Positions 1 through 54,776 of a stretch of DNA of 62,683 nucleotides are shown in pieces. Source of the stretch: a virus (Duplodnaviria; Caudoviricetes). Position numbers and translations under genes: made by a program. The stretch lies in the IMG/VR virus record IMGVR_UViG_3300024262_000030, positions 1 to 62,683 of that record. One strand, 5' to 3'. The notes beneath the pieces were generated by a model. That model worked only from the letters and a program-made list of their open reading frames with translations. It searched no databases and had not been told where the DNA came from. The first letter of the stretch is position 1. Every line of letters begins with the position of its first letter.

Positions 1-24
1 AGTTCGATTCTCGTAGGCGCTTCA
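1..24 (+). tRNA. 3' fragment of a tRNA truncated by the window edge
   Basis: GTTCGATTC T-loop followed by an acceptor 3' strand; anticodon is outside the window. Confidence 0.7.
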
Positions 25-30
25 TTTTGT

Positions 31-105
31 GGGGATATGGTATAACGGCAATTATTTCTGGATTTGACCCAGAAGACAGTGGTTCGATTCCACTTATCCC
101 TTCCA
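31..105 (+). tRNA. tRNA-Gln(UUG)
   Basis: Acceptor GGGGATA/TATCCCT, anticodon arm TCTGG-atTTGac-CCAGA, GGTTCGATTCC, encoded CCA. Confidence 0.9.
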
Positions 106-110
106 TTTAT

Positions 111-194
111 GGCTGTGTGGTGGAATGGTATACACGGTAGTTTTAGAAACTATTGCCTTCGGGATTGAGAGTTCAAATCTCTCCACAGCTACCA
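111..194 (+). tRNA. tRNA-Leu(UAG)
   Basis: GTAGT-ttTAGaa-ACTAT, long variable arm, T-arm, ACCA. Confidence 0.95.
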
Positions 195-201
195 ATTTCA
201 A

Positions 202-282
202 GGGCGTATACGCAAACAGGTAAAGCGAACATACTTAAAATGTGTTGATTGTCTGTCGGTTCGACTCCGACTACGCCTACCA
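202..282 (+). tRNA. tRNA-Leu(UAA)
   Basis: ACATA-ctTAAaa-TGTGT, GGTTCGACTCC, ACCA. Confidence 0.93.
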
Positions 283-286
283 ATTT

Positions 287-411
287 TCAATGTAGTGTAA
301 ATACACGTTCAATAAATAAGCACGCTTCTTGGTGAAACTCCAAAACTTTAGAATAGAGTGGGTCTAAAATGGTAGTAGAATTCGGTGGGAAACGAGAATC
401 CGAATCATTGA
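287..411 (+). ncRNA. tRNA-like element with expanded loops
   Basis: TCAATG/CATTGA closing stem, TAGTG..AGCAC D-like arm, ATTCGG/CCGAAT T-like stem; no canonical anticodon loop; sits between tRNAs. Confidence 0.4.
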
Positions 412-420
412 TAATTTTAT

Positions 421-508
421 GTCGTCGTGGCGGAACAGAAACGCAACAGGCTGCAACCCTGAAGTCACCACTTGTGGTGTGCTGGTGCAAATCCAGCCGA
501 CGACTCCA
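421..508 (+). tRNA. tRNA-Cys(GCA) with long variable arm
   Basis: GTCGTCG/CGACGAC acceptor, CAGG-ctGCAac-CCTG, U73 and CCA, extra CACCA/TGGTG arm. Confidence 0.88.
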
Positions 509-512
509 TTTA

Positions 513-616
513 GAGATGCAATCAGCAAAACAAAATTAGGATAATACGATGTCCCAAAAGGGCAATGTTAGGTGGTTCAAACCCACCAAAACCGATTCGT
601 CGGATAACGCATCTCG
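513..616 (+). ncRNA. Y-RNA-like element A (CAGCA-stem family) containing a T-arm
   Basis: GAGATGC/GCATCTC closing stem, aatCAGCAA, internal GGTGG-TTCAAAC-CCACC and CCGA-TTCG-TCGG hairpins. Confidence 0.65.
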
Positions 617-625
617 TTACTTTCT

Positions 626-702
626 GGATCGTAGACTGAATTAGAGATAGTACTCCGCTCATAACGGAGAATAGGTGGGTGCGGTGCCCACACGATCCAC
701 CA
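626..702 (+). tRNA. tRNA-CAU (Met or Ile2)
   Basis: GGATCGT/ACGATCC, CTCCG-ctCATaa-CGGAG, atypical T-loop, ACCA. Confidence 0.8.
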
Positions 703-707
703 TTTTT

Positions 708-780
708 AGGCTCTTAGTTCAGTTGGTAGAACGACGGTTTTTGGTACCGTATGTCGTAGGTTCAAATCCTACAGGGCCTT
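708..780 (+). tRNA. tRNA-Gln(UUG), CCA not encoded
   Basis: ACGGT-ttTTGgt-ACCGT, GGTTCAAATCC, acceptor AGGCTCT/AGGGCCT. Confidence 0.8.
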
Positions 781-788
781 AATTTTAT

Positions 789-877
789 GCGAGATTAGCT
801 CAGTTGGTCAGAGCGCTTGTTTTACATACAAGATGCCGAATAGGTTTACACAGGTTCGAATCCTGTATCTCGTACCA
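789..877 (+). tRNA. tRNA-Val(UAC) with long variable region
   Basis: CTTGT-ttTACat-ACAAG, GGTTCGAATCC, ACCA; ~17-nt variable region. Confidence 0.88.
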
Positions 878-890
878 ATTTGAATTTTAT

Positions 891-966
891 GGTACTATTG
901 ATGTAGTAGTAAGCATATAACTCTGTGAAAGTTAGTGGACCGGAGCATAACCGGTATAGTACCCCA
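891..966 (+). tRNA. tRNA-His(GUG)
   Basis: TAACT-ctGTGaa-AGTTA, encoded G-1 opposite C73, CCA. Confidence 0.88.
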
Positions 967-976
967 ATTTCATCAT

Positions 977-1052
977 GCGTCATTAGTGTTAGCGATTAGC
1001 ACGCAAGGCTTCCAACCTTGAGGCGTCGGTTTGAATCCGACATGATGCTCCA
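977..1052 (+). tRNA. tRNA-Gly(UCC)
   Basis: CAAGG-ctTCCaa-CCTTG, U73, CCA. Confidence 0.93.
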
Positions 1053-1069
1053 TTTTAAATATTTTATGT

Positions 1070-1160
1070 GGAGAGTAAACCGGACAGGCGATACCGGCGG
1101 TGTCTTGAAAACACTTGGGGCTGTAAAAGGTCTGGCTTTCGAATAGTCTGCTCTCCGCCA
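1070..1160 (+). tRNA. tRNA-Ser(UGA)
   Basis: GGTGT-ctTGAaa-ACACT, long variable arm, GCCA. Confidence 0.92.
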
Positions 1161-1166
1161 TTTTTT

Positions 1167-1241
1167 GCCTGTCTATTTCAATGGATAGAATATTCGGCTA
1201 CGAACCGAAAGATCGGGATTCGAATTCTCGGATGGGCACCA
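1167..1241 (+). tRNA. tRNA-Arg(ACG)
   Basis: TTCGG-ctACGaa-CCGAA, ACCA. Confidence 0.92.
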
Positions 1242-1245
1242 TTTT

Positions 1246-1494
1246 ATCGTTTGAAAAAGTAGGCTTAAAAGCAGCCATCTTTTAAAGAGTGAAGCAATGG
1301 CCCAAGTGCTACTGAGTGTATATAGCGATACTAAGGATATAGTGTTATATATAAGGGAGCGGGGATATCACTAAGTAAAGTATCTGACAAGTCCGTAATA
1401 ACGAGACACGAATCTAATGTAATGTTAGATATGATATATGTTGGTAGGTTATTATACTAACATCTTCTTTAGCGTCTAAGCACATTCAAATGAT
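1246..1494 (+). ncRNA. Structured RNA containing a 23S rRNA L11-binding (H43/H44) mimic with a large insertion
   Basis: 10-bp closing stem ATCGTTTGAA/TTCAAATGAT; GTAGGCTTAAAAGCAGCCATCTTTTAAAGAG (1259-1289) and AGCGTCTAAGCACA (1471-1484) match the two halves of the rRNA GTPase-associated centre. Confidence 0.75.
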
Positions 1495-1570
1495 TTTTTT
1501 AGTCAACTACCATGATTAAGTTCTGTAAGAGTATGCTGACATGGCATCATCGTCTGAATGATGCTTTCTT

Positions 1571-1650
1571 GGCGATGTGGGCAAATTGGTAAAGTCGGCT
1601 ATCTCAAAAATAGCGTCATTATGTCGGTTCGAATCCGATCATCGCTACCA
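1571..1650 (+). tRNA. tRNA-Leu(CAA)
   Basis: GCTAT-ctCAAaa-ATAGC, GGTTCGAATCC, ACCA. Confidence 0.92.
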
Positions 1651-1706
1651 ATTTAAAAAGTTCAATAAAAGTTCAATAAAATATGAGTTTCATACTATTT
1701 ATTGGT

Positions 1707-2351
1707 ATGCGACATTTAGTATATAAAATAACGAATTTAATAAACAATAAAATATACATAGGTAAACACTCCACTAAAGACGTGAATGATAATTATATGG
1801 GGTCTAGTGTCATATTGAAACGTGCTTTTGATAAATACGGAAAATCCAATTTCAATAAAGAAGTTCTATTTGACTTTGACACTGAAGATGAGGCTCTGTT
1901 AACTGAGACTGATTTAGTTGATGAAGAATTTGTCGCTCGGTTAGATACCTACAACATTCAATTGGGCGGTCGTGGTAGTTGGACACATGTGAATGACGAT
2001 CCCGATATAAAGAACTGGAGACAATCGGGTGCTGATGTCATGGCTGAAAAATTTAAAGATTCTGAATATAAAGAAGAACATTCCAATAAGATAAAGCGTG
2101 GTCATGAATTATACAGACAAAGAGCTGGGGATTCAGCATATACGACTTGGGTTGGTAGACGACACACTGAAGAATCTAAACGTAAAGTTGGTATGGCTAA
2201 CTCCAAACACCAAAAAGGAAAGGGTAATTCTCAGTATGGAACGTGTTGGATTTATTCATTAACTGAAAAGAAATCTATTAAAATTAAGAAAGAAAATTTA
2301 CAAGAACATTTAGATAATGGCTGGTTAAAAGGTCGTAGGATTAAATTTTAA
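1707..2351 (+). CDS. GIY-YIG homing endonuclease (Seg-like) inside the tRNA array
   Basis: VYKITN..IYIGKH..YMGS..YN motifs, NUMOD3-like HTEESKRK; start moved to ATG 1707 behind the TATTTAT motif. Confidence 0.9.
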   Translation: MRHLVYKITNLINNKIYIGKHSTKDVNDNYMGSSVILKRAFDKYGKSNFNKEVLFDFDTEDEALLTETDLVDEEFVARLDTYNIQLGGRGSWTHVNDDPDIKNWRQSGADVMAEKFKDSEYKEEHSNKIKRGHELYRQRAGDSAYTTWVGRRHTEESKRKVGMANSKHQKGKGNSQYGTCWIYSLTEKKSIKIKKENLQEHLDNGWLKGRRIKF

Positions 2352-2355
2352 ATAT

Positions 2356-2444
2356 GGAAGGCCGACACAGATTGGTGAGGTGTGACTGTTTGCTAAACAG
2401 TTGGGCTCGTAAGGGTCCTGAGGGTTCAATTCCCTCGTCTTCCT
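2356..2444 (+). tRNA. tRNA-Ser(GCU), CCA not fully encoded
   Basis: ACTGT-ttGCTaa-ACAGT, long variable arm, GGTTCAATTCC. Confidence 0.9.
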
Positions 2445-2454
2445 CACTTTATAT

Positions 2455-2530
2455 GTCGCCGTAGTTCAAGTGGCAGAACACTACATTGGTATCGTAGAGG
2501 TTGTGGTTTCAATTACCACCGGTGACTCCA
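2455..2530 (+). tRNA. tRNA-Thr(GGU)
   Basis: GTCGCCG/CGGTGAC acceptor, loop ttGGTat, CCA. Confidence 0.87.
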
Positions 2531-2601
2531 TTTTCAAATTTGGTGAGTGACCTATCCGAAGAAATTAAAGAGGATATTGTCATTGATCAAATTTTATTTA
2601 T

Positions 2602-2677
2602 GCTCCTGTCGTCCAATTGGAAAGGACATCGGTCTTCTAAATCGAGAATCTGAGTTCAACTCTCAGCGGGAGTACCA
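2602..2677 (+). tRNA. tRNA-Arg(UCU)
   Basis: TCGGT-ctTCTaa-ATCGA, ACCA. Confidence 0.92.
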
Positions 2678-2687
2678 TTTTTATAAA

Positions 2688-2715
2688 TTGACCAATTGAA
2701 AAACAATGGTAAAAT
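2688..2715 (+). promoter_or_regulatory. sigma70-type promoter for element B
   Basis: TTGACC-16-TAAAAT with extended TG, 7 nt before the RNA stem. Confidence 0.65.
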
Positions 2716-2722
2716 ATTCATT

Positions 2723-2854
2723 TAGATATTAACAGCAATTAATACTCATGCAAAACGATGATATGCGTTGGTTCGAATCCCTGCCGCCCTCACAAATTAA
2801 AAGTTTTGAGGGTGTAGCCAAATGGTTAGGCAATCGTGTAGTAAATATATCTAG
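2723..2854 (+). ncRNA. YrlA-like Y RNA (element B): circularly permuted tRNA domain on a CAGCA stem
   Basis: TAGATAT/ATATCTA stem, taaCAGCAA, then ACGAT, T-arm GGTTCGAATCC, loop-closed acceptor CGCCCTCA/TGAGGGTG, D-arm TAGCCAAATGGTTAGGC, ATCGT. Confidence 0.8.
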
Positions 2855-2861
2855 TAATCAC

Positions 2862-2932
2862 AGTCCAATAGATCAATGGTAGATCGTTACCCCGACATGG
2901 TAAAGACGACGGATCAAAACCGTCTTGGACTA
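2862..2932 (+). tRNA. tRNA-Val(GAC), CCA not encoded
   Basis: AGTCCAA/TTGGACT, TTACC-ccGACat-GGTAA; C33 and atypical T-loop. Confidence 0.8.
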
Positions 2933-2974
2933 TTTTTTAAAACTATCTTGGCTTGTTCACAAAAATAATATATA

Positions 2975-3595
2975 ATGAGTAAATTAAAAGACAAAGGAAA
3001 TTTCATAGAATGGTCGAAAGATCAAATTGAAGATTATACAGATCTTCAATCTGATATAAGAAAGTATATGGAAAAATGGAATATTCGTGATAAAGACACT
3101 GTAATTCAAGAAGGTGAAGATATGATGGTCGGACGTATGTTGGGATTTATCAAATGTAACGATGGAAAACATGGGTGGGATTGTTCAAATGAATCGGAAA
3201 CCAAATTTCTTGAGGTAAAGCAAAGTAGTTGGGAAGTAGATCAAAATTCAGCAACTTTCAACGACACCACGCTTGCAAAAGCTCTTGAGTTTTGTGAAGA
3301 AAATACATATGTTGGATTGAGTGTGTCGTCATCAAAAGGAATTGAATTTATTGTATTTGGAAGCGAACCTACGCTCGGTGAAATGTTAGCGGAAAAAGTT
3401 AAAAATAGAAAACCTGGAAGTCGTTCAACTCCGTCTATGAGTATCAAAGCTCTAATTGAAATTGGATATGATGTATGTATTCCAAGTGAAGATAAAAGAG
3501 ATATGGTGTATGACAGACTTTCAAAAAGCAGATCAATCAAAAAACTTTTAGCTAAAGAAGATATTAAATTAATTGAAGATGTTAAAGTTAAGTAA
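2975..3595 (+). CDS. Putative PD-(D/E)xK restriction endonuclease
   Basis: E..GWD..LEVK motif pattern; overlaps the downstream methyltransferase gene. Confidence 0.55.
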   Translation: MSKLKDKGNFIEWSKDQIEDYTDLQSDIRKYMEKWNIRDKDTVIQEGEDMMVGRMLGFIKCNDGKHGWDCSNESETKFLEVKQSSWEVDQNSATFNDTTLAKALEFCEENTYVGLSVSSSKGIEFIVFGSEPTLGEMLAEKVKNRKPGSRSTPSMSIKALIEIGYDVCIPSEDKRDMVYDRLSKSRSIKKLLAKEDIKLIEDVKVK

Positions 3596-6046: not shown

Positions 6047-6435
6047 GGGGGTGAACTAGATTCGACTCTGAATAAAAATTCCAAACTGCAAGTGAGAGAC
6101 GATACTTGGCTCTCTAAAAATGTATCAACGCATTCAACTGGCGATAATAAAGTTGTGAACTTCAGTAATGAAGTTGCTATGGCAGCCTAAACGCTCCATC
6201 CGTGAAATAAGATTTTCCTCCGAATTTTAAAGTAACGTCATTTAGGAGGAACTTTAACATACAAGTTAAAAGAATGTTAAGGGATTGGTTTGCTGCCTGA
6301 CAAAAAAGTAAACTCGTGGTATATACGATAGAAACCTAGTCCAATGCTTCTGGACGATGAAACATGAAGACAAACTTGTAGATGTTTGAGATGGATATTT
6401 AGAACACCGGAGTGCAACTCTCCGCACTTCCACCA
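6047..6435 (+). ncRNA. ssrA: tmRNA; tag (A)GDNKVVNFSNEVAMAA at 6140-6190
   Basis: GGGGGTGAA..GATTCGAC 5' end, T-arm and TTCCACCA 3' end, tag ORF ending AA-stop. Confidence 0.95.
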
Positions 6436-16542: not shown

Positions 16543-16769
16543 AGAATTTAGATGCAGTAAAACAACAAGGAGATTTACCGCTTCCAAAATACAATATCGG
16601 TAATAAATTATTCAAGAGGAATATCGTCGGAAAAGTGGTAAATATAATAACGTCAATAAACTTTGACAGAGAAACACAAACAATTTCAAGCGTAGATTAC
16701 ACTTATTGCACAATAAGCACAGTAGGAATCCACGATTGGAAAGAAGATGAAGTAAAGGAATTAAAATGA
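16539..16769 (+). CDS. Hypothetical protein
   Basis: ATGA-coupled both sides. Confidence 0.6.
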   Translation: MKNLDAVKQQGDLPLPKYNIGNKLFKRNIVGKVVNIITSINFDRETQTISSVDYTYCTISTVGIHDWKEDEVKELK

Positions 16770-17797
16770 AAAAACTAGCAACAATTGAGAAAATTACAAA
16801 ATTTGAAAAACACCCGAACGCAGATCGTTTGAATTTGATCACGGTTAAGGGGTGGGAGTGTGTAACGGCATCTAACTATGAAGTTGGTGATCTAGTTGTT
16901 TACATCCAAATAGACACTACAGTTCCAAAAGCCGATTGGTCGGAGTTTTTGTTTGACAAAGGTAAACCTGATCAAACTAGAGCTAGAATTAAAACTATAA
17001 AATTGAGAGGTCGTGTATCACAGGGGTTGTGTCTTCCAGTTGATGTGCTTGGTTTGAAGCCGGATGAACCTATACTTGAAAGCGACGACGTTACAGAGGA
17101 ACTTGGAATTGAAAAATATCAAAAACCTGTACCGGTTCAGTTAAGCGGTGAGGTGGTTGGAAATTTCCCAACTCATATTTGCCCTAAGACAGACGAAGAA
17201 AGGATTCAAAATTTTCCAGAGTTGATTGATGAATTTAAAGCTCTTGACTGTGACGTGTATGTTTCCGTCAAAATGGATGGAACATCCTTTTCCGCAATTG
17301 CATACGAAGAAATGAATGGATTGAAAAATCTTAGCGTATGTGGTCGCAATTGGGAACTCAAGGAAACTGATGGTAATACCTACTGGAAGATGGCACACAA
17401 ATATAAATTGGATGAAAAAATGCAAGATTTGGAAGTCATTCAAGCGGAAATGATTGGTCCTAACATCCAAAAAAATCCAAGCGGAGAAGCTGAAGTTGGA
17501 TTGAGGGTATTTAACTATGGTACTGGATATGGTCGTAAATACTTTGGATTGAATGAGATGAGAAGTTTTTGTGAAAAAAATGAAATCCCTATGGTTCCTG
17601 TTATTTATGAAGGTAAGTTTAAATGGAATTCCATGGAAGAGTTGCTTGAGTTTGCTGATTCTGTTAAATATGACAACGGCAAACAAGCAGAAGGAATAGT
17701 GATTCGTCCTGTTAAGGAGGTTCATTCAGAATTGCTTGGTGGTAGATTGTCATTCAAGGTGATCTCAAATGAGTATGCAGCTAAACATGGAGACTAA
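16766..17797 (+). CDS. RNA ligase, DRB0094 (Rnl5) family
   Basis: N-terminal HPNADRL OB-fold, PKTDEERIQN, KMDGTS, QAEMIG, EGIVIR, FKVISN. Confidence 0.93.
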   Translation: MKKLATIEKITKFEKHPNADRLNLITVKGWECVTASNYEVGDLVVYIQIDTTVPKADWSEFLFDKGKPDQTRARIKTIKLRGRVSQGLCLPVDVLGLKPDEPILESDDVTEELGIEKYQKPVPVQLSGEVVGNFPTHICPKTDEERIQNFPELIDEFKALDCDVYVSVKMDGTSFSAIAYEEMNGLKNLSVCGRNWELKETDGNTYWKMAHKYKLDEKMQDLEVIQAEMIGPNIQKNPSGEAEVGLRVFNYGTGYGRKYFGLNEMRSFCEKNEIPMVPVIYEGKFKWNSMEELLEFADSVKYDNGKQAEGIVIRPVKEVHSELLGGRLSFKVISNEYAAKHGD

Positions 17798-18095: not shown

Positions 18096-18535
18096 ACATA
18101 TTAGATTTAAAAAAACTAAAAAACACAGCAAGAAAAAATAAGCAACCAGATGTTGTATCTGCGATTGACTATGTACTTTCTGAGATTGATTTGATTGAGT
18201 CAAGAAATAACAAAACTTTGAATGAAGACGAAGTTATGACATCAATCAAAAAGACTATTTCACAACTGAGAGAGACTCAAAATATGTATGCTGAAGCAGC
18301 ACGAAATGAGGACGCAGAAGTTCAAAAAGTCAGAGCAGATTATCTACAAACATTACTTCCACAACAATTGTCAGACGATGACGCGAAACAAGCTGTTGTT
18401 GATGCCATGATTGCCGTTGGTGCATCAAGCGTAAAAGACATGGGGAAAGTCATGGCACATCTTAAACAACAGTATGGAGCAGCTTTGGATATGAAAGTTG
18501 CATCTAATTTAGTGAAAACTTCGTTTTTGATTTGA
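18092..18535 (+). CDS. GatB/YqeY domain protein
   Basis: LPQQLS, KDMGKVM motifs. Confidence 0.9.
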   Translation: MNILDLKKLKNTARKNKQPDVVSAIDYVLSEIDLIESRNNKTLNEDEVMTSIKKTISQLRETQNMYAEAARNEDAEVQKVRADYLQTLLPQQLSDDDAKQAVVDAMIAVGASSVKDMGKVMAHLKQQYGAALDMKVASNLVKTSFLI

Positions 18536-18597
18536 CTTTTTATAACGTGGTTGGTATAGTTGTATCAATTCAACTGAACGTTTTACAAAAAGGAAAA

Positions 18598-19383
18598 ATG
18601 AAACAGAATAAAAATGATTTAGGATCAAGGATGAAGGATTACGAACAACGTGCTCGTAGTTACCTTCAACGAAGATCATACACTGTAATTAGAGTTGATG
18701 GGAAATGTTTTTCTTCATACACACGTGGTCTTAAAAAGCCATTTGATGAAGGTTTGGTTGAAGATATGCAACTAACCACTCAATTTCTTTGTGAAAACAT
18801 ACAGGGTTGCAAACTAGGATATACACAAAGCGACGAAATTAGCTTAATCCTCACCGACTTTGACAACAACCAAACCGATGCGTATTTTGACGGTCAAATC
18901 CAGAAGATTTGTTCGGTTGTTGCTAGTATGGCAACTGCCAAGTTTAATCAATTGAGACTAAAGAGATATGCTGTTGAACTTGAAGGTTTGCCTATCTTGG
19001 CATTCTTTGATGCCCGTGCATTCAATCTACCATCTTTCACGGAAACAATGAATTATCTTCGTTGGCGTCAAAAAGATGCAGTAAAAAATTCAATCAGTAT
19101 GGTTGCACAGTCGTTGTATTCTGACAAACAACTTCACAAGAAGAATGGTTCAGAAAAACAGGAGATGATTTTCCAAAAAGGACAAAATTGGAATGATTAT
19201 CCTGCTAGTCAAAAACGTGGAACTACGGTAGTCCGTAGACCATTTACCGCTATTTCGGATGAAGGTGACACTTATTCCAGAAGCCGTTGGGAAGTTGAAA
19301 CTCCTGATCTGTTGAAAGACACTGCGCCGGAGTATCTTGGGGAAATTTTTCCAGATGAAAAATATACCGAAACTGCTGGCTGA
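18598..19383 (+). CDS. tRNA-His guanylyltransferase (Thg1-like protein)
   Basis: RMKDYE, IRVDG, YTQSDEISL, FDAR, WRQKDA.KNS. Confidence 0.95.
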   Translation: MKQNKNDLGSRMKDYEQRARSYLQRRSYTVIRVDGKCFSSYTRGLKKPFDEGLVEDMQLTTQFLCENIQGCKLGYTQSDEISLILTDFDNNQTDAYFDGQIQKICSVVASMATAKFNQLRLKRYAVELEGLPILAFFDARAFNLPSFTETMNYLRWRQKDAVKNSISMVAQSLYSDKQLHKKNGSEKQEMIFQKGQNWNDYPASQKRGTTVVRRPFTAISDEGDTYSRSRWEVETPDLLKDTAPEYLGEIFPDEKYTETAG

Positions 19384-25301: not shown

Positions 25302-25696
25302 ATGTAAATGAATTATACAGCAAATCAACATTGAATGCTGCTAAAATTAACAATGTAGCTGAAAAACGGAGAAATCAAAATGATCGTATTAAGCGTGAGG
25401 CTGTAATGCGATTTTTTCCACATTTAATTAATTTCATTGAAAAACAAATTGAACTTCAAGCTGAAAATGGCAACTTTACCTGTGTAGTATCAGTGGATAA
25501 AGTGGGGCGTACTGGTATTGAAATAAGAGGGATGAAAAATGGAATAGTTTGTGCGTGTGACTGGGATATTTATAGAGTCGTTGATGAACATTTTACACAA
25601 CAGGGATTTTCAGTCAAGGCATTACCAAGCATAGAACGTACTAATTGGTATATTTCATGGGAAAATGCCGTAACTCCATTGGATTATCAAATATGA
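25298..25696 (+). CDS. Hypothetical protein
   Basis: ATGA-coupled ORF. Confidence 0.6.
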   Translation: MNVNELYSKSTLNAAKINNVAEKRRNQNDRIKREAVMRFFPHLINFIEKQIELQAENGNFTCVVSVDKVGRTGIEIRGMKNGIVCACDWDIYRVVDEHFTQQGFSVKALPSIERTNWYISWENAVTPLDYQI

Positions 25697-26421
25697 GTTT
25701 TTTAGATTACAGCGACCAAATAGATTATCCTATATTTTTACAGGAATGTAATAACCCAGCATCAAACGAGTTATTCAGAAATACTATCAACAAGTATCAT
25801 AGCTATGTGAAATATAAGGATGCCCCCACGCGAAATATCCGTTGGTTGGTGATTGAAACATCTACTGGTCACTGTATCGGTGCTGTTGGAATTGCCAGTT
25901 GTGTACTTGCTTTAAAATCTCGCGATGGTTTCGTCGGATGGGATAAAGACGCACGAATGAAAAATTCCAACAAGGTTGCTAACAACTCACGATTTTGTTT
26001 GATTCCCAATGCGTCCAAATTGAAAAATGTTGCATCTATGACATTGAAACTTGTCGGTATTGAAGGCAGAAAAAGATGGAAAGAAAAATACGGTGACGAT
26101 CTGGTTTTGCTTGAAACTTACATTGAACAAATAGACAATGGAGAATTACACCGTTCAGGAGCATGTTACAAAGCTAGTAACTGGATATATGTAGGAGAAA
26201 CTACAGGTGTAAGCATAAGCAAGTCTCCTATGACACTGTGGAAGAAAGAGGATACTGCTCGTGGTAGATTATGTAGAGCGAATCCTGAAGCTGCCTTGGA
26301 AAAGTATGGAAAGTATTTAGGAGAAACTCAAAACGCTGGGTATAAAGTTTCAAAGTCAACTCCTAAAATGGTATTTGTGAAACCTCTTGTAAAGGATTGG
26401 CGAAAACACCTTGTGAATTAA
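25693..26421 (+). CDS. DUF4338/DruA-like (Mom/GNAT-like fold) protein
   Basis: YHSY, RD.FVGW, NNSRF, LLETY, GACYKASNW..GET. Confidence 0.75.
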   Translation: MSFLDYSDQIDYPIFLQECNNPASNELFRNTINKYHSYVKYKDAPTRNIRWLVIETSTGHCIGAVGIASCVLALKSRDGFVGWDKDARMKNSNKVANNSRFCLIPNASKLKNVASMTLKLVGIEGRKRWKEKYGDDLVLLETYIEQIDNGELHRSGACYKASNWIYVGETTGVSISKSPMTLWKKEDTARGRLCRANPEAALEKYGKYLGETQNAGYKVSKSTPKMVFVKPLVKDWRKHLVN

Positions 26422-27085: not shown

Positions 27086-28354
27086 TCAAAAAGATAACTG
27101 ACGAATCATTTTGATATAATCCTGCTTGGATGTATTTGGATCTTCTTCAAATTTGTCTTGAACCATGTCAAGAATTTTTTTGAAATCTTTTCCAGGTTTA
27201 AATCCCATTGCAATCAAATCTCCGCCTGAGAATGGAGGTTTCTGAGGTTCATTTGTCATGTTTTCAATTTGTGATTGAATTTTTGACGTATCTACCGGCT
27301 TATTCAATGAATCCATCAATGATAATGCTGTATATGCATGTCTTCCAGCAATCCTTCTGAATTTCCGAACAGTTTTCAATGATTGATCCAAGTTAAAGAA
27401 ATCTTGAAGTTCAATAGCATTTGCCACATCTGAAACGATGTGGTTGGGGTATTTCAAATGTTTCATCAATGATTCAACCTGCTGTTTCGGGATATCACTA
27501 AACAATACCGCAAGTTTAACTTCTGGCGATTTGTCACTATTCATTGCTCTCATTTTTTCCACGGTGAATTTTACACCAGGTAATACATTTTGAGCAATTC
27601 CAGAATTGTAGATCAATTTGAATGCTTTTCCACTTTTCTTCGTTTTGAGAATTTTGTTGAATTCTTCTTGGACTCTTTCACCTGAAATGTTTTTGATTTG
27701 AGCAGCGTTACGCTTTAATGCTCTCAACTGATCCATAGGAACATCCCAATCATATTTTACGAAGAACCTAACAAGACGTAACATTCTCAAAGGATCGTCT
27801 GAAAATGTTTTATCAGGGTCAAGTGGAGTTCTAGCAATTCCTTTTTCAAGGTCTGCTCTTCCCTTGCCTGTCAAATCCACGATCTCACCTGTTGAAATGT
27901 TCTTGAATAATGAGTTAGCAGTCAAATCACGTCTTTCAGCATCAGCTTTCAATGAAGCGCCGCTTACCTTTGGTTTTCTTGACCCAGGTTCATATTCTTC
28001 TGCTCTTGGTGCCACAGCCTCAATGTCAATGTCTGAAAGATCAACTCCATTGTGAGTGATTCCTTTCATAGTAAATTTGCTTGTTCCATATGTAGGAAAT
28101 AAAATCGGGTTAGAACCTTCTTTATGATTCCCCATTTTTTTAGTTGCCCAATTGGCGAATGAAATTCCACCGTCTGGTAGATCAACCACAACATCGATGT
28201 CTTTGATTGGTTTACCCATCAATTCGTCTCGGACAGCTCCTCCAGCAACTAGAACTTTGTTCTCAAATTCTGTTCCTGAAATCAATTCTCTGAGAAAGTC
28301 AATGGCTAAATCTTCTTTCTTTCCCTCTTGTAGTAATTTTTTCAATTTAATCAT
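27086..28354 (-). CDS. cca: CCA-adding tRNA nucleotidyltransferase (class II)
   Basis: AGGAVRD, DIDV, RRDLTANSL, DDPLRMLR, SGERV..E. Confidence 0.92.
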   Translation of the reverse strand: MIKLKKLLQEGKKEDLAIDFLRELISGTEFENKVLVAGGAVRDELMGKPIKDIDVVVDLPDGGISFANWATKKMGNHKEGSNPILFPTYGTSKFTMKGITHNGVDLSDIDIEAVAPRAEEYEPGSRKPKVSGASLKADAERRDLTANSLFKNISTGEIVDLTGKGRADLEKGIARTPLDPDKTFSDDPLRMLRLVRFFVKYDWDVPMDQLRALKRNAAQIKNISGERVQEEFNKILKTKKSGKAFKLIYNSGIAQNVLPGVKFTVEKMRAMNSDKSPEVKLAVLFSDIPKQQVESLMKHLKYPNHIVSDVANAIELQDFFNLDQSLKTVRKFRRIAGRHAYTALSLMDSLNKPVDTSKIQSQIENMTNEPQKPPFSGGDLIAMGFKPGKDFKKILDMVQDKFEEDPNTSKQDYIKMIRQLSF

Positions 28355-37065: not shown

Positions 37066-37213
37066 TTTAAAACAAATGAAAAAGTCGAGGAAAAATAAAA
37101 TAACTTTTTTCTTGACATTTTAAACAGTATAATGTATATTTAATAATAACACAACAAGCCTGATATTGATAAGGCTTGCTGTAACAGTCAAACGCAAACA
37201 TTCAGATAAAGAT

Positions 37214-38308
37214 ATGAATAAGCAAAAAATTATAGATGCCATTAATGGCAAGCCTGAAAAGGCATACCTTTTGGTCACTGGCGGAGGAACCCGCTTTATC
37301 GGTGACTTTCTGGAACAAGGTGGTGGTAGTGCCACTATTCTCGGATTTGAAGTTCCATACGCAACGGAAGCTTTTAATAAAGCTCTTGGGTATGAAATTG
37401 ACAAATATTGTGATGAAAATGCTGCAAAGCGGTTAGCATTAGCTGCCTTTAGAAAAGGTGAAGCGGTAAATGACTACAAACGACTTGAACAAACAATTGG
37501 GTTTGGTGTTACATGTTCTTTGAAAAAAGACGGTGAAAGAGAAGGACGAGAACACAAATTATTCATCAGTTACTTCAATGGAAAGACTTTGAAAACGTTG
37601 GGTATTAAATTACCAAATGTTGATAGAAAATTACAAGAGAAAGCTGTATCTGGATTGATCTTGGGTTTCATGGCTGATGCTTATGAAATGCCTGATGTAT
37701 TTGACAATATGCTTACAAAGCCGATTGAGGACGTTATAACTTATGCAGATGAAGTTGATACAGAATATGGTGAAGCATACGGAAACATACCAATTGCACT
37801 TCTCGGAGAATGTGACCCACGGAATGACATAATTTTTCCTGGCAGCTTCAACCCACAACACGAAGGTCATGCTGAGATTGCGAGGTTGGTTGAAAAACAA
37901 ACAGGCAAAAAAGTTTATTTTGAATTGTCTGTTAAGAATGTAGAAAAGCCAGACGTTTTACCACGAGATTTAAACGATAGAGCAAAACAATTTGATGAAA
38001 ATTTAATTGTCAGCAATCTTCCAAAATTCATTGACAAAATCAAATTTTATGAAGGTGCCACATTTGTTGTTGGTGCTGATACAATGAATCGTTTGGTGTG
38101 GGATTATCCATATGAAGATTTGTTGATGTTGCATACACATGGAATCAAATTTATTGTGGTTCCTAGAGATGGGATGTTTGAAAATGGAGAGTATGAAGCA
38201 TTGGCTGACGCACCTCTTCAATTCAAAGAATTGGCAATTGATATGATTGCAATGGTGTTGGATTACACCAATCCAATCAGTAGTACACAAATTAGAAATG
38301 GAGAATAA
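37214..38308 (+). CDS. CinA-like domain fused to HxGH nucleotidyltransferase (NMNAT/NadD-like)
   Basis: TGGG..GGGS..VPY N-domain; PGSFNPQHEGH, VGADT, ISSTQIR. Confidence 0.78.
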   Translation: MNKQKIIDAINGKPEKAYLLVTGGGTRFIGDFLEQGGGSATILGFEVPYATEAFNKALGYEIDKYCDENAAKRLALAAFRKGEAVNDYKRLEQTIGFGVTCSLKKDGEREGREHKLFISYFNGKTLKTLGIKLPNVDRKLQEKAVSGLILGFMADAYEMPDVFDNMLTKPIEDVITYADEVDTEYGEAYGNIPIALLGECDPRNDIIFPGSFNPQHEGHAEIARLVEKQTGKKVYFELSVKNVEKPDVLPRDLNDRAKQFDENLIVSNLPKFIDKIKFYEGATFVVGADTMNRLVWDYPYEDLLMLHTHGIKFIVVPRDGMFENGEYEALADAPLQFKELAIDMIAMVLDYTNPISSTQIRNGE

Positions 38309-38441
38309 TAAAATGGAACCATATGACACAATGGAAGATGACAAACGTATGTTTGATATCGGTGGCGGAATTAAAAAAGGCGAATTGAATATAGTCGTCG
38401 CTTCCAAAAACACAGGCAGAAGCTTGATCAAAGAAAACAAA

Positions 38442-39356
38442 ATGAAAAAACTAGCAGTATTAATCGGAAGATTTCAAAGTGACGAAATGTGCTCTGAAAT
38501 GAATACACAAATCCTCAGACTTTTAAATGAAAATGATAAAGTGTTGATTTTACTTGGGTTGAGTCCTGTAGTTGCAACGAAACAGAATCCAATGGATTTT
38601 GAGACACGTAAGTTGATGGTTGACGAATACTACGGTAACTTTGAGTCTTTGCATATTGGATATGTGAAAGACAATAGAAGCGACGATGAATGGAGTAAAT
38701 CAATTGACGAACAAGTAGATAGATTTGCAAAGAAACATAAGCTGAAAACTATCAGCGGTATTCATGGCGGAAAATACACATTCTGCAAACATTACAACGG
38801 CAAACACAAAGCAGTTGAGTTATCTCAGAAAATCTACAAAAACAACGAGACTCAGAATGCTCGTGCTGGCAGTTCCGTAAAGGGAACAAAGGATTTCCGC
38901 GACGGTGTCATTTGGGCTACACAAAATCAATATCCCAAAGTTTATCCAACTGTAGATGTTGCTGTTCTGGATGGTGAAAATCTGTTACTTGCTAGAAAGC
39001 CAAATGAAACCAAATTCAGATTCATCGGCGGTTTTGTTGATACCAATGAAAAGTTTGAAGATGCTGCCAAGCGTGAAGTGATGGAAGAAGCTAATATTGA
39101 GATACAAAATCTACAATATATGGGAAGTTTTATGATTGATGATCACAGATACCGCCGTGAGGTTGATAGTATAACCACAACATTCTTTGTTGCTGAATAT
39201 GTTGACGGTGAACCAAGAGCACAAGATGATATTGAAGAGATACGATACATTCCACTTAGTGAGATTGATGTTGACGATTTAGTTCCAGAACATGCTGAAT
39301 TATTTGAAACATTACTCAATGATGCTTACGATGAAAATGGGAATTTTATACTATGA
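38442..39356 (+). CDS. NadM-Nudix type protein (ADP-ribose pyrophosphatase; degenerate NMNAT motif)
   Basis: IGRFQ, NPMDFETR, YPTVD, GGFVD..AAKREVMEEA; ORF is open upstream to 38298. Confidence 0.85.
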   Translation: MKKLAVLIGRFQSDEMCSEMNTQILRLLNENDKVLILLGLSPVVATKQNPMDFETRKLMVDEYYGNFESLHIGYVKDNRSDDEWSKSIDEQVDRFAKKHKLKTISGIHGGKYTFCKHYNGKHKAVELSQKIYKNNETQNARAGSSVKGTKDFRDGVIWATQNQYPKVYPTVDVAVLDGENLLLARKPNETKFRFIGGFVDTNEKFEDAAKREVMEEANIEIQNLQYMGSFMIDDHRYRREVDSITTTFFVAEYVDGEPRAQDDIEEIRYIPLSEIDVDDLVPEHAELFETLLNDAYDENGNFIL

Positions 39357-39718
39357 AAACAACAGTTGAATTGACGGGAGACGAACTTGAAGAAGCAATC
39401 CTTGAATATGTGGGATCAAAAGGATTGATCGCAACTTCTCCCATTAGATTTTGGGTTCCAACGGCGAATGAAGATGGAATTAGAACAACGTCTGTGAGAA
39501 AAGTTGAATTTGAAGTTGAATTTGTGGATTAGACAAATGATGGAAAAACCAACAAACGTATAAACCCCAACATGTTACGTGAATTTGAGAACACTGGATG
39601 GGTGAGGGGTAGAATAAACTTTAATCACCCGTTTAAAAAAACTTGACTTTTGCCATTTTACATGATAGGATGGTAATCTAATAAACAATAATCCTGATAA
39701 AGATAAGGAAAAAATAAA

Positions 39719-41152
39719 ATGAAACATAATATAATAATGGATGTCGATTCCTACAAAGTAGGACATAATTTAGTCTATAGACCCGGTACAGAGGTCATTT
39801 ATAGCTACTTTGAGGCACGTAAAGGTGCAGAATACAACGAGGCGGTTTTCTTCGGATTACAACCTTTGCTTAAACGGCTTGAGGGGGTAGTGGTAACACA
39901 AGACCTGATTGATACAACTGCTTTGAAAATTAAAGCTCACTTCTTCGGAAATGATACTTTTTTCAATCGTGAAGGTTGGGAATACATTGCCAATGAGTTG
40001 GGTGGAAAGCTTCCAATTCGGATTAAAGCTGTTCCAGAAGGAACTGTAGTTCCGATTGACAACGTCATGATGACAGTTGAAAATACAGACGAAAAATGTG
40101 CTTGGTTGACCAACTACCTTGAGACTTACTTGAGTCGCGTTTGGTATCCAATTACAGTGGCAACCAAAAGTTACCAAACAAAGAAAATCTTGAAAAGATA
40201 TTTGGATGAAACGGCAGATGCTGATTTTCTTCTTCCATTTATGCTTCATGATTTTGGAAGTCGTGGTGTAAATACCTTTGAGGGTGCTGGTTTAGGTGGT
40301 GCTGCTCACTTGGTAAATTTCTTGGGAACTGATACAATGGTTGCATTGGATTATGCAAATGAGTATTATGACGCACCATTTGAAGGATTGGGTCATAGTG
40401 TATTTGCAACTGAACACAGTGTAATGACTGCTGGTGGTCCAGAAGGTGAAATGGAGATCGTTCAAGACTGTCTTGATAAAAACCCACTTGGAATTGTAAG
40501 TTTAGTCGCCGACAGTTACGACTACTACGAGTTCGTGAGACAAATGGGAAGCACCTTTAAGCAACAGATCATTGATCGTAATGCTAACGCTGGTGATATC
40601 CCAACGAAGCTTGTAATCCGTCCTGACAGTATCACGCCAACGCATGAAACTCCTGAAGAGTTGGTCGTGTGGACATATCAACAACTTGAAGCTGACTATG
40701 GTGTGACATTAAACACAAAGGGTTACAAAGAGTTACATCCTGCTGTTGGTGTCATTTGGGGTGACGGAATTGATACCAAAGGAATTGAAAGAATCCTTGA
40801 AGCTCTTAAACAAGCTGGTTACAGCACCGGAACGCAGATCTTCGGTCAAGGCGGCGGGCTGCTCCAGAAGGTAAACCGTGATACATTGAGACATGCTTTC
40901 AAATGTAGTGCTCAAAAACGGAATGGTGAGTGGATTGATATCCAAAAGAATCCATTGGATCAAACCAAGAAAAGTAAAGCTGGTCGTCTCGGGTTATACA
41001 TTGGGAATGATGGTAAAGCTACCACATACCGTCTGGATGACTTGAAAAATGCTGCTCACGGACCTGTGAATCATTTGGTTACGGTTTATGAAAATGGAGA
41101 AATCCTTGTGAATCATACCTTTGACGAAGTCAGAGAACGTGCTAAAATCTAA
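39719..41152 (+). CDS. nadV: Nicotinamide phosphoribosyltransferase
   Basis: DSYK, LHDFGSRG, ATEHSV, IRPDS, WGDGI, FGQGGGLLQ, KKSKAG. Confidence 0.95.
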   Translation: MKHNIIMDVDSYKVGHNLVYRPGTEVIYSYFEARKGAEYNEAVFFGLQPLLKRLEGVVVTQDLIDTTALKIKAHFFGNDTFFNREGWEYIANELGGKLPIRIKAVPEGTVVPIDNVMMTVENTDEKCAWLTNYLETYLSRVWYPITVATKSYQTKKILKRYLDETADADFLLPFMLHDFGSRGVNTFEGAGLGGAAHLVNFLGTDTMVALDYANEYYDAPFEGLGHSVFATEHSVMTAGGPEGEMEIVQDCLDKNPLGIVSLVADSYDYYEFVRQMGSTFKQQIIDRNANAGDIPTKLVIRPDSITPTHETPEELVVWTYQQLEADYGVTLNTKGYKELHPAVGVIWGDGIDTKGIERILEALKQAGYSTGTQIFGQGGGLLQKVNRDTLRHAFKCSAQKRNGEWIDIQKNPLDQTKKSKAGRLGLYIGNDGKATTYRLDDLKNAAHGPVNHLVTVYENGEILVNHTFDEVRERAKI

Positions 41153-41158
41153 TTGAAT

Positions 41159-41187
41159 GGGGCGGTGGAATTTAACCGCCCCTTTTT
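41159..41187 (+). terminator. Intrinsic terminator
   Basis: GGGGCGGT..ACCGCCCC TTTTT. Confidence 0.8.
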
Positions 41188-41224
41188 CTTGACATTTCAA
41201 CAAAACTAATTTAAAGTATATAAC

Positions 41225-41437
41225 ATGAAAGAAGTACACATATTATACAGTGACCTAGATGGTAACGAACATGGTTGTTTTTCCAAGATGGAAATGGCAA
41301 TTGACAAAGCAAAAGTTATGATTGAGAAACAAGAGTCCTCACTTACATTAGAACCTTCCCATTTGTATATAATCACACATCAAGTTGATTCTAAACAAAC
41401 TATTGGGGAAATGACATATATGGAGAATGTATTATGA
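41225..41437 (+). CDS. Hypothetical protein
   Basis: Co-directional ORF. Confidence 0.55.
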   Translation: MKEVHILYSDLDGNEHGCFSKMEMAIDKAKVMIEKQESSLTLEPSHLYIITHQVDSKQTIGEMTYMENVL

Positions 41438-41570
41438 AAGATTTAATCCTTTTTATTCTGACGATTTTGCTGTTGGTTTTTGTTTTTGAAGCATCCAACA
41501 ATGGAATCAAACCAACGATTGACAAATATTGGCTTGGAAAAGACAACATTGAACAAGTAGAAATCAAAAA

Positions 41571-42524
41571 ATGAAAATATTCAGCGGTAGCTCTAACAAA
41601 AAACTAACCAAACAAATTTGCCAATTCTTAGATGAACCATTTGGGAATGTATATCTACATGCTTTTCCGTCTGGAGAACGGTATTGTCAGTATAAAGAGA
41701 ACATACGAGGCCAAGATACGTTCATTATCCAAAGTCTGGATACACCTGTCAATGACAATCTAATGGAGTTATTGATCATGATTGATGCTGCTAAAAGAGC
41801 ATCTGCCAGTCGTATTACCGCTGTGATTCCTTACATGGGATATTTACGACAAGACCGTAAAACAAAAAGTAGAACGCCTATTTCTGGCAGACTTGTCGCA
41901 GATATGATAGAAGCTGCTGGTGCCAATAGAATCATCAGCATGGATTTTCATTGTGCTCAAGCCCAAGGATTTTTCAAGATACCCGTAGATCATTTATATG
42001 CAACACCTGTGATCACAGAATATCTTAACAAAACCAACAACATCAATGTGGTTGTATCTCCAGATGTGGGCGGAGTTAAACGTGCTCACGCTTATGCTGA
42101 AACATTGGATGTATCTTTTGCATTTATTGCCAAGAAACGTATATCAGACACGGAAGTAGAAAGTAGTGAAGTATGTGGTGATGTTAAGGACAAAAATGTA
42201 TTATTGGTTGACGATATGACAGAAAGTGCTGGTACGTTGATATCTGCTGCTGATATTTGTAAAGAAGCTGGTGCTAGTACAGTGACATGTGCCATTACCC
42301 ACGGAGTATTTACAACCAAGGCACAAGAACGATTTGAAAGCGCTGGCCATGTGATAGATGAATTCATTTACACGAATACCACTCATAACAAAACCATAAA
42401 CCTACAGAATTCCAGAGTGGGGAAAATGACAGAATTAAACGTGGGTAATCTGCTTGGTAGGGCAATTAAACGAACCCACACAAACGAAAGTATATCTGAA
42501 TTATTTCAAGTGGAAGGGTTTTAA
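41571..42524 (+). CDS. prs: Ribose-phosphate pyrophosphokinase
   Basis: FPSGE, PYMGYLRQDRK, SPDVGG, VDDMTESAGT, THGVF. Confidence 0.95.
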   Translation: MKIFSGSSNKKLTKQICQFLDEPFGNVYLHAFPSGERYCQYKENIRGQDTFIIQSLDTPVNDNLMELLIMIDAAKRASASRITAVIPYMGYLRQDRKTKSRTPISGRLVADMIEAAGANRIISMDFHCAQAQGFFKIPVDHLYATPVITEYLNKTNNINVVVSPDVGGVKRAHAYAETLDVSFAFIAKKRISDTEVESSEVCGDVKDKNVLLVDDMTESAGTLISAADICKEAGASTVTCAITHGVFTTKAQERFESAGHVIDEFIYTNTTHNKTINLQNSRVGKMTELNVGNLLGRAIKRTHTNESISELFQVEGF

Positions 42525-53224: not shown

Positions 53225-53272
53225 TTCAAAAGGATAACGGGGGAGAGAAAATCTCTCCCGCCCTTCTTTACT

Positions 53273-53470
53273 ATGCCGAGACAAGAAAACAAAAAACGGA
53301 TTGAAGTACGACTTGAAAAAGAAATCGTAGACGATCTAACATACGATGTACTTTACATTGACAATAAAGAAATTGTAGCATTCCATTTGGAAAACATTGA
53401 AAAATTAAATTTGGAACATAACAATGCAACAATTTTACAATTTTTAACAGACTATTTTAAACAGCCATGA
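53273..53470 (+). CDS. Hypothetical protein inserted between prkA and yeaH
   Basis: ATGA overlap with yeaH. Confidence 0.55.
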   Translation: MPRQENKKRIEVRLEKEIVDDLTYDVLYIDNKEIVAFHLENIEKLNLEHNNATILQFLTDYFKQP

Positions 53471-54768: not shown

Positions 54769-54776
54769 GGAATAGA

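Follow-up and report, generated by a model that had tools for sequence, protein, structure and literature searches.

A small RNA gene in the tRNA array of a phage genome fragment

We analyzed a 62,683-nucleotide (nt) stretch of DNA from a virus of the Caudoviricetes (IMG/VR record IMGVR_UViG_3300024262_000030, positions 1 to 62,683), which is referred to below as the window and represents a 62.7-kb fragment with a CheckV completeness of 34. The window opens with an array of transfer RNA (tRNA) genes, in which ARAGORN called 13 tRNAs at positions 31-2932, all on the + strand. Between the tRNA-Arg and tRNA-Leu genes of this array lies a small RNA gene (1246-1494, + strand), which a first-pass annotation, made from the letters of the window, had described as a phage RNA reproducing the GTPase-associated centre of 23S ribosomal RNA (rRNA). 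All coordinates and strings given in that annotation were reproduced in the window sequence and are correct to the base. The element and its two neighbours are composed as follows.

1167..1241, + strand: tRNA-Arg(ACG) gene (ARAGORN; Rfam tRNA, 51.8 bits), with 4 nt between its 3' end and the closing stem
1246..1255, + strand: 5' strand of a helix-42-like closing stem (ATCGTTTGAA), pairing with 1485-1494; read from the sequence
1257..1281, + strand: helix-43-like hairpin with the 1067 loop, equivalent to rRNA positions 1057-1081 (C1272 corresponds to C1072)
1282..1290, + strand: junction strand TTAAAGAGT, equivalent to rRNA 1082-1090 and the same as the Rfam LSU consensus there
1291..1467, + strand: extra arm of 177 nt without a counterpart in real 23S rRNA, closed by GAAG (1291-1294) and CTTC (1464-1467)
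1468..1471, + strand: TTTA linker joining the extra arm to helix 44
1472..1484, + strand: helix-44-like hairpin GCGTCTAAGC (1472-1481) plus ACA, equivalent to rRNA 1091-1103 (C1473 corresponds to C1092 and G1480 to G1099)
1485..1494, + strand: 3' strand of the closing stem (TTCAAATGAT), which runs into a T run at 1494-1500
1571..1650, + strand: tRNA-Leu(CAA) gene (ARAGORN and Rfam), 76 nt downstream of the element

As proposed in the first-pass annotation, the closing stem comprises 10 bp, one of them a G-U pair, and it encloses two rRNA-like strings, GTAGGCTTAAAAGCAGCCATCTTTTAAAGAG (1259-1289) and AGCGTCTAAGCACA (1471-1484). The multi-hairpin insertion that separates them had been put at ~175 nt and measures 177 nt, with GAAG and CTTC pairing at its base. 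In addition, G1287 of the window (rRNA G1087) pairs with C1483, and the extra arm makes a four-way junction out of the three-way junction of rRNA. If the array is processed in the same way as tRNA precursors, the tRNA-Arg 3' end located 4 nt upstream would set the 5' boundary of the RNA. Within 1246-1494, ARAGORN and Rfam gave no tRNA, tRNA-like, or transfer-messenger RNA (tmRNA) match.

Resemblance to helices 42-44 of 23S rRNA

A string of 29 nt from an authentic 23S fragment (locus L103) matches window positions 1262-1290 with two mismatches, and no such match is expected in 100 shuffles. Similarly, blastn of the region matches annotated 23S rRNA records at approximately position 1100. The Rfam model LSU_rRNA_bacteria (RF02541) aligns window positions 1257-1304 to model positions 1098-1144 (19.4 bits, E = 9.6e-05 in a 75-nt search), and only the helix-43 and junction part of this alignment is meaningful. 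Together with the covariation among homologues presented below, these matches uphold the earlier description of a tRNA-array RNA in which 23S helices 42-44 are reproduced.

The rRNA positions used here follow what we take to be the E. coli numbering. They fit the eight E. coli letters named in passages of PMC2952862, i.e., A1070, G1071, C1072, G1091, C1092, A1096, G1099, and C1100.

The element does not belong to a 23S rRNA gene, given that its 19.4 bits compare with a gathering score of 50 and that it is flanked by tRNAs. The first-pass annotation had also stated that the window holds no other rRNA sequence, and our analysis agrees, since we found in it neither an rRNA match at Rfam gathering scores nor a sarcin-ricin-loop motif.

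A family of split elements in large phages

Using blastn with the window region, we found the 5' module of the element (i.e., that preceding the extra arm) at unannotated places in large phages. Of the 11 places examined, 10 show the split architecture of the window, namely the window itself and nine named phages: Pseudomonas phages pf16, Astolliot, and UNO-G1W1, Aeromonas phage 4_4572, Vibrio phage 2.275.O, Cronobacter phage GAP32, Ralstonia phage RSP15, Acinetobacter phage ME3, and Xanthomonas phage XacN1. The named carriers include Otagoviruses. The eleventh place, in Paenibacillus phage Pd_22F, is a real 23S fragment and served as a control. For Pectobacterium phage CBB and Xanthomonas phage XaC1, we saw the 5' module only. 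The element is unannotated in every named phage record inspected, one of which overcalls the spot as a small hypothetical protein. In XacN1, the element (L102, 524-1174) directly follows a gene annotated as a 2'-5' RNA ligase.

Two pattern scans of IMG/VR enlarged the collection, the first with 94 stretches and the second, in which the base at 1072 was other than C, with 73 more. Collectively, 179 of 182 sources carry the 5' module, and 166 have both modules and a complementary closing stem, all of them in the split architecture. The 3' half was located by means of a motif-plus-stem rule, as stem complementarity alone was swamped by noise. Thirteen sources have the 5' module and fail this rule; six of these are truncated at the ends of their loci, and in one (L112) the 3' half is recognizable by eye. 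By arm similarity, the 166 complete elements fall into 107 clusters, in which the arm is between 23 and 354 nt long (median, 155 nt). The conserved homologues with a variable insertion for which the first-pass annotation had recommended a search therefore exist.

We also built a covariance model (R1) from 12 other viral copies, leaving the window out of the seed. R1 finds a single match in the 62,683 bases of the window, at 1245-1495, over its full length (model positions 1-136; 69.9 bits, E = 5.4e-16). The named-phage copies score 75-92 bits, and authentic 23S helices 42-44 score 59-62 bits over 70 nt; elements with long arms are split by the model. Because R1 does not separate the phage copies from authentic rRNA cores, the extra arm and the setting are needed for the assignment as well. 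The window element has all of the features of the new family, i.e., both halves, the extra arm, the UUUR linker, the closing stem, and placement on the strand of the tRNAs.

Diverged copies extend the family to the Prevotella Lak megaphages, all 15 records of which cover 76-92% of the L106 element at ~70-72% identity. The copy in Lak-B3 (L299, 571-1010) lies between tRNA-Arg and tRNA-Gly genes, keeps the junction strand, the linker, and the closing stem, and scores 26.6 bits with R1.

A blastn-short comparison of 55 arms with real 23S rRNA returned scattered matches of 8-15 nt and no second rRNA region that is copied consistently, except for a sarcin-ricin-like motif in L026. The 5' part of the window arm is homologous to the L038 arm (71% over 66 nt). 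Many arms carry a conserved terminal hairpin, GNC-ACC-CCR-NNNN-YGG-TAAG-GNC, with a covarying outer stem and preceded by AAGTR (L001, L002, L005, L006, L008, L011, L012, L035, L038, L047, L053, L065, L069, L076, L079, L089, L104, L105, and L127). The window arm does not have this hairpin, even though its 5' part is common with that of L038.

These data bear on whether the element could be a piece of host 23S rRNA acquired by capture or contamination, an rRNA pseudogene that has been interrupted, or a mobile intron residing in rRNA sequence. Phage collections do contain real rRNA contamination, as L103 and several short records demonstrate. However, none of the 99 hits of the first collection continues as authentic 23S rRNA, and the flanks are phage tRNAs. 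Moreover, the family conserves features that are absent from the Rfam rRNA consensus (the extra arm placed right after U1090, the UUUR linker, and A1101, the last in 102 of 107 clusters), and compensatory evolution extends across the 107 clusters. For an intron in particular, no Rfam intron family matches the window or the nine named-phage loci, and the arms, spanning the lengths given above, are unrelated in sequence. We consider the chance that any of these explanations holds to be negligible.

Conserved structure and a covarying tertiary contact

A MAFFT alignment (A1) of 95 cluster representatives was used to score a structure that we specified against shuffled and slid controls. Of the cells in this structure, 94.6% are paired, versus 68.2% after shuffling. 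The covariation score is 0.676 versus 0.178 for the shuffled alignments; none of 500 shuffles reached it, and the slid controls gave 0.08-0.19. Changes on both sides occur in 15 of the 21 pairs, and every helix of the homologues shows compensatory changes. More specifically, the nine inner pairs of the closing stem are 89.7% paired, each has both-side changes, and all four Watson-Crick types are represented in a stem that has no sequence conservation within the family. In the extra arm, the three pairs that come first are 93.4% paired, and each of them has both-side changes. Pair 1058:1080 is formed in 94 of 95 sequences (GC 36, UA 30, AU 24, CG 3, UG 1, and unpaired 1), and pair 1092:1099 is CG in 53, UA in 40, and UG in 2. 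Pairs 1091:1100 and 1087:1102 are GC in 95 of 95 sequences, which is partly set by the search rule.

Noncanonical features of rRNA are retained as well. The U1060-U1078 mismatch is kept (U1060 in 107 of 107 clusters and U1078 in 97), A1057 is present in all 107, and G or A stands at 1056 opposite A1103, as in rRNA. The linker, whose positions are free of the search patterns, reads TTTG in 91 clusters and TTTA in 11. Where position 1067 was free in the search, it is A in 26 cases, G in 20, and U in 1. The helix-44 loop of the window, GTCTAA, is atypical in having C at 1095 and T at 1096, with A1095 being found in 97 of the 107 clusters.

According to passages of PMC2952862, docking of the 1067 loop on helix 44 in E. 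coli rRNA involves pairing of C1072 with C1092 and a hydrogen bond between C1072 and G1099. In the phage RNAs, the letters at 1072 and 1092 match in 106 of 107 clusters (C/C 59, U/U 47, C/U 1, and U/C 0), and U1092 is accompanied by A1099 (42 clusters) or G1099 (5 clusters). Although A, G, and T were all permitted at 1072 in the second scan, T is present in each of its 73 matches; 68 of these read GTGT at 1091-1094 by rule and one more by eye, and in four this segment was not found. Among the matches listed in a scan of bacterial genomes (see below), authentic 23S rRNA with U1072 likewise has U1092, in 31 of 31 loci.

For eight of the 47 U-type representatives, the arm matches that of a C-type representative. 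For example, L136 and L004 are 89.6% identical over the whole 183-nt arm, yet they are of opposite 1072/1092 type, and the same coordinated switch separates L033 from L145, L001 from L127, and L013 from L138. Since U-type and C-type arms match so closely, the switch does not reflect a single clade split and appears to have occurred several times independently. The covariation of this rRNA-specific contact argues that the tertiary fold of rRNA is kept, and the fold of helices 43 and 44 that the first-pass annotation had proposed to verify is thereby supported in the homologues. In our view, the comparative sequence data strongly support a compact fold of the phage RNAs like that of the real GTPase-associated centre, and the element is, with high confidence, a real structured RNA of this fold.

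Two points pull in the other direction. First, the search patterns fix most of the 5' module, including the junction strand, and conservation there exists by construction, so that the independent evidence is confined to what the patterns left free (1056-1061, 1078-1080, the 3' module, the stems, and the linker). Second, single-sequence folding of the window copy is weak (z = -1.78, with 8 of 200 shuffles folding as well), and the minimum-energy fold retains the closing stem and not helices 43 and 44; the structure of these helices therefore rests on homology and covariation.

Association with tRNA genes

In the 107 cluster loci, 654 of 658 tRNAs lie on the strand of the element. The tRNA nearest to the closing stem is at most 10 nt away in 30 loci, at most 30 nt in 43, and at most 500 nt in 65, and there is no tRNA in 26 loci. 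Ten loci also have a tmRNA, which in two of them is within 63 nt. The shared strand and flush spacing suggest that the element is co-transcribed with the tRNAs, and the spacing also points to its release by tRNA-processing nucleases.

Such placement would also be expected of a cis element of the tRNA array that serves in processing, stability, or termination, or as a leader, with a likeness to rRNA that is incidental or inherited. The T run that follows the window copy fits this idea, as do the common strand and the tRNAs that often adjoin the element. On the other hand, a spacer needs neither rRNA-specific noncanonical pairs nor a covarying tertiary contact, 26 of the 107 loci lack tRNAs altogether, and the downstream neighbours vary between loci. 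A promoter and terminator scan of window positions 1-3000 called no terminator at the element; its totals (14 promoter-like sites versus 9.4 +/- 2.6 in shuffled sequence, and 2 terminator-like sites versus 2.1) are uninformative. In addition, no ribosomal-protein leader family of Rfam matches the element (E up to 10; E up to 1 in a rerun), and there is no ribosomal-protein gene among the 36 window proteins scanned. A purely cis-acting role thus seems highly improbable.

Relatives with a copy of the sarcin-ricin loop

A scan covering one genome per prokaryote species listed 120 loci, mostly authentic rRNA of Patescibacteria; its filter let the U1092 form of real 23S rRNA through. Among the matches listed, 31 are authentic 23S loci with a sarcin-ricin motif >1200 nt downstream, 48 are unsplit loci without this motif in the stretch (probably Patescibacteria 23S rRNA), and 2 are authentic rRNAs that the rule miscalled as split. 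The scan also recovered at least five phage-type split copies in bacterial assemblies.

At least 34 further loci, labelled cyanobacterial, contain an unsplit copy of the centre in a non-rRNA setting, with a second motif 60-90 nt upstream that we take to be the sarcin-ricin loop. In authentic 23S rRNA, this motif lies 1543-4080 nt downstream of the centre, in agreement with that identity. The cyanobacterial RNA is ~190 nt long and is often found inside long tRNA arrays. Rfam LSU models match its centre locally (L208, 55.1 bits), and it is otherwise not in Rfam. Near-full-length unannotated copies are located on Dolichospermum and Kovacikia plasmids (H41 and H42). We observed the RNA in Microcoleus, Moorena, Nostoc, Phormidium, Coleofasciculus, and others (L190, L205, L208, L179, L242, L274, and 28 more among the matches listed).

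The cyanobacterial RNA shares with the phage RNA the copy of the centre, here with the U1072/U1092-A1099 triple, and the location in tRNA arrays that are mobile. It differs in its unsplit three-way junction, its upstream sarcin-ricin hairpin, a conserved 3' extension, and its bacterial host. Long tRNA arrays of cyanobacteria are described as mobile and as induced by ribosome-targeting antibiotics in passages of PMC8421152, and these passages describe no rRNA-like RNA in such arrays.

In Moorena and Nostoc (L208, 3320-4811, and L179, 5792-7371), the RNA is followed by an open reading frame (ORF) of ~280 amino acids that has no match in Pfam or PADLOC. The next gene encodes a ThiF/E1-like protein with matches to the E1-E2 models of PADLOC. 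In L242, a Tpt1/KptA-like ORF, judged by eye, comes after the RNA.

Among the viral loci, the sarcin-ricin motif was found inside the extra arm, in a hairpin with a covarying stem, in L106, L107, L108, L113, L114, L154, L112, and L026. The co-occurrence of both GTPase-contacting rRNA elements in single small RNAs of cyanobacteria and some phages would be explained if the RNA were a sponge or platform that holds or regulates a translational GTPase or another factor (EF-G, IF2, RelA, HflX-like proteins, or rescue factors) off the ribosome. Indeed, oligonucleotide copies of the GTPase-centre and sarcin-ricin sites have been reported to bind EF-G separately. A1067 and A1095, however, which are key factor contacts in rRNA, are not invariant in the family, the sarcin-ricin copy is missing in most phage members, and the benefit to the phage is not evident. 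We therefore view a factor sponge as improbable.

A possible decoy for agents directed at the GTPase-associated centre

The free rRNA domain folds alone, binds uL11 tightly, and binds uL10-bL12 next to it, and so the phage RNA is expected to bind the same host proteins. Titration of uL11 or stalk proteins, dampening of the stringent response, and decoying of a ribotoxin had been put forward as possible functions in the first-pass annotation. On balance, we favor the view that the RNA acts by binding ligands of the GTPase-associated centre. More specifically, we postulate, with the arguments for and against about equally weighted, that window positions 1246-1494 encode a stable trans-acting noncoding RNA that is a decoy for agents aimed at this centre. 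The RNA would be cut from the transcript of the tRNA array by tRNA-processing nucleases, would bind host uL11 and uL10-bL12, and, dressed in these proteins, could present a ribosome-like stalk base off the ribosome. It might then soak up agents directed at the GTPase centre, most likely ribosome-damaging defence effectors or inhibitors of the site, and may in this way keep host ribosomes working during infection. That the ligand that matters attacks the site, and is not one of the ribosomal proteins themselves, is a tentative part of this proposal.

The genes that accompany the element in the window enter into this proposal. A tmRNA is encoded at 6047-6435 (Rfam, 68.6 bits; not called by ARAGORN), 4.5 kb downstream of the element, and the phage also encodes a set of tRNA-repair enzymes:

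16766-17797, - strand: RNA ligase
18532-19383, - strand: Thg1-like tRNA-His guanylyltransferase
27086-28354, - strand: CCA-adding enzyme

The tmRNA and these enzymes form a toolkit that would keep translation RNAs in working order. We rank the decoy first on the basis of the sarcin-ricin copies of the relatives, the company of tRNA, tmRNA, and RNA-repair genes, and the stress induction of the cyanobacterial arrays; titration of uL11 or the stalk comes second and a sponge for translational GTPases third. A wider and more speculative extension, which we hold to be on the unlikely side, is that phages and cyanobacteria share "ribosome-in-pieces" RNA decoys, always with the GTPase-associated centre and in some lineages with the sarcin-ricin loop too, that shield ribosomes from defence toxins or antibiotics directed at the GTPase centre.

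According to the second-ranked explanation, the RNA is a sponge for ribosomal proteins that titrates uL11 and perhaps uL10-bL12, or that disturbs the feedback of ribosomal-protein operons, thereby shifting host physiology in favor of the phage. Ribosomes poor in uL11 cannot activate RelA. The best-conserved free positions (A1057, U1060, 1058:1080, and 1072/1092) build the tertiary fold and the lower part of helix 43, the surface of which is the site of the uL11 C-terminal domain, and the factor-contacting position 1067 varies freely, which would be expected were protein binding the sole requirement. Such a sponge would nevertheless need an RNA copy number comparable to that of ribosomes, and it leaves the sarcin-ricin copies of the relatives unexplained, given that this loop is outside the uL11 site. 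These copies are more readily reconciled with a decoy of the entire centre than with titration of uL11 alone; we judge such titration to be unlikely, if less so than a factor sponge.

Several observations also weigh against the decoy. The loops touched by factors and thiopeptides are not strictly kept, whereas a decoy for an agent that reads these loops should conserve them; in Lak-B3, both helix 44 and the loop of helix 43 have been rewritten, as has the sarcin-ricin-like motif, with some G-C pairs flipped. Stoichiometric decoys neutralize catalytic toxins poorly. Finally, apart from L112, the sarcin-ricin copy is confined to ~4 of 107 phage clusters and is absent from the window, so that the argument for a whole-centre decoy is one by association.

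Two other roles were considered and rejected. A sponge for thiopeptides of the thiostrepton type was set aside because position 1067 varies freely, with the counts given above, and replacement in trans of a damaged rRNA domain because the closing stem has no conserved sequence with which to dock on the ribosome.

Comparison with known RNAs

The closest known counterpart of the phage RNA is the structure that it copies, i.e., 23S helices 42-44, the site of uL11 and uL10. Common to both are the helix-43 sequence and loop, the junction strand, the helix-44 hairpin, the U1060-U1078 and 1056-A1103 mismatches, and the 1072/1092:1099 contact with its covariation from C/C to U/U. In contrast to 23S rRNA, the phage RNA is a free-standing molecule of ~100-450 nt in a tRNA array rather than part of a 2.9-kb rRNA, and it carries an additional arm inserted between 1090 and 1091, a UUUR linker, and an A where rRNA has U at 1101, with no conservation of the helix-42 sequence.

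Leaders of ribosomal-protein mRNAs are likewise nonribosomal RNAs that imitate a ribosomal-protein site on rRNA, and the rplJ (L10) mRNA leader resembles the same rRNA region. These leaders are cis-regulatory 5' untranslated regions with a partial likeness to rRNA, whereas the phage RNA is flanked by tRNAs, borne by phages, and a near base-for-base copy that includes tertiary contacts. The principle of a stable noncoding RNA that sequesters a protein by mimicry is also found in 6S RNA, CsrB-type sponges, and YrlA (a Y-RNA-like RNA with a tRNA-like module), none of which is known to imitate a functional centre of the ribosome or to be a standard passenger of phage tRNA arrays.

Other structured RNAs are known to reside near phage tRNA genes. 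The tRNA cluster of phage T4 encodes the stable, structured species 1 and 2 RNAs, and to our knowledge, no rRNA mimicry has been reported for these or for GOLLD and ROOL. The latter two are structured RNAs that phages encode near tRNA genes, as described in passages of PMC12286853. The phage RNA differs from GOLLD and ROOL in that there is no sequence or model match between them; their Rfam models match neither the window nor the named-phage, cyanobacterial, or sarcin-ricin-bearing loci.

The first-pass annotation had recommended a check for an existing Rfam family. No family of Rfam 15 covers the element in the window, in the nine named-phage loci, or in the cyanobacterial and sarcin-ricin-bearing loci, in which there are local LSU matches only. 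In a full-text literature search, which did not cover most subscription journals or supplements, we found no description of an rRNA-mimic RNA, and the main text of a survey of huge phages (PMC7162821) does not contain "23S", "rRNA", or "ribosomal RNA". Within the scope of Rfam 15 and this literature, the split mimic of the GTPase centre is a new class of RNA and constitutes a large uncatalogued family.

If our interpretation is correct, viruses copy a functional centre of rRNA in addition to tRNAs, tmRNA, and ribosomal proteins, and the RNA would be a new kind of player in the contest over the host translation apparatus. There may then exist host defences or inhibitors, as yet undiscovered, that target the stalk base and the sarcin-ricin loop, and the family could represent a new class of RNA-based counter-defence that travels with the tRNAs that replace nuclease-cleaved host tRNAs. 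For RNA structural biology, it provides more than 100 natural variants of a classic RNA-protein recognition module, among them an isosteric base-triple switch and a tolerated four-way-junction insertion. Annotation pipelines would gain a new RNA model, and the question can be addressed in cultured phages, e.g., pf16 on Pseudomonas putida.

Other features of the array and the phage

The phage has no close named relative, as megablast of window positions 1-3000 against named phages gave no match and tblastn of an 806-amino-acid reductase-like protein gave 48.7% identity at best. Several gaps of the tRNA array look tRNA-like by eye, i.e., 626-707, which ends in CCACCA, 1076-1166 (within the gap 1053-1166), which ends in CTCTCCGCCA, and also 283-420, 509-625, 878-976, 1495-1570, and 2678-2861. 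Neither ARAGORN nor the Rfam tRNA model called a tRNA in these gaps, where there are antisense artefact matches only.

Elsewhere in the window, a set of genes for salvage of nicotinamide adenine dinucleotide (NAD) spans 37166-42524 and comprises a pair of cytidylyltransferase-like and NUDIX genes, a nicotinamide phosphoribosyltransferase, and a phosphoribosyl pyrophosphate synthetase. Such sets are said to counter NAD-depleting defence. A DruA-like protein is encoded at 25645-26421 (Pfam, 1.3e-25; weak PADLOC match), and a trio of PrkA, DUF444, and SpoVR genes lies at 51287-56351.

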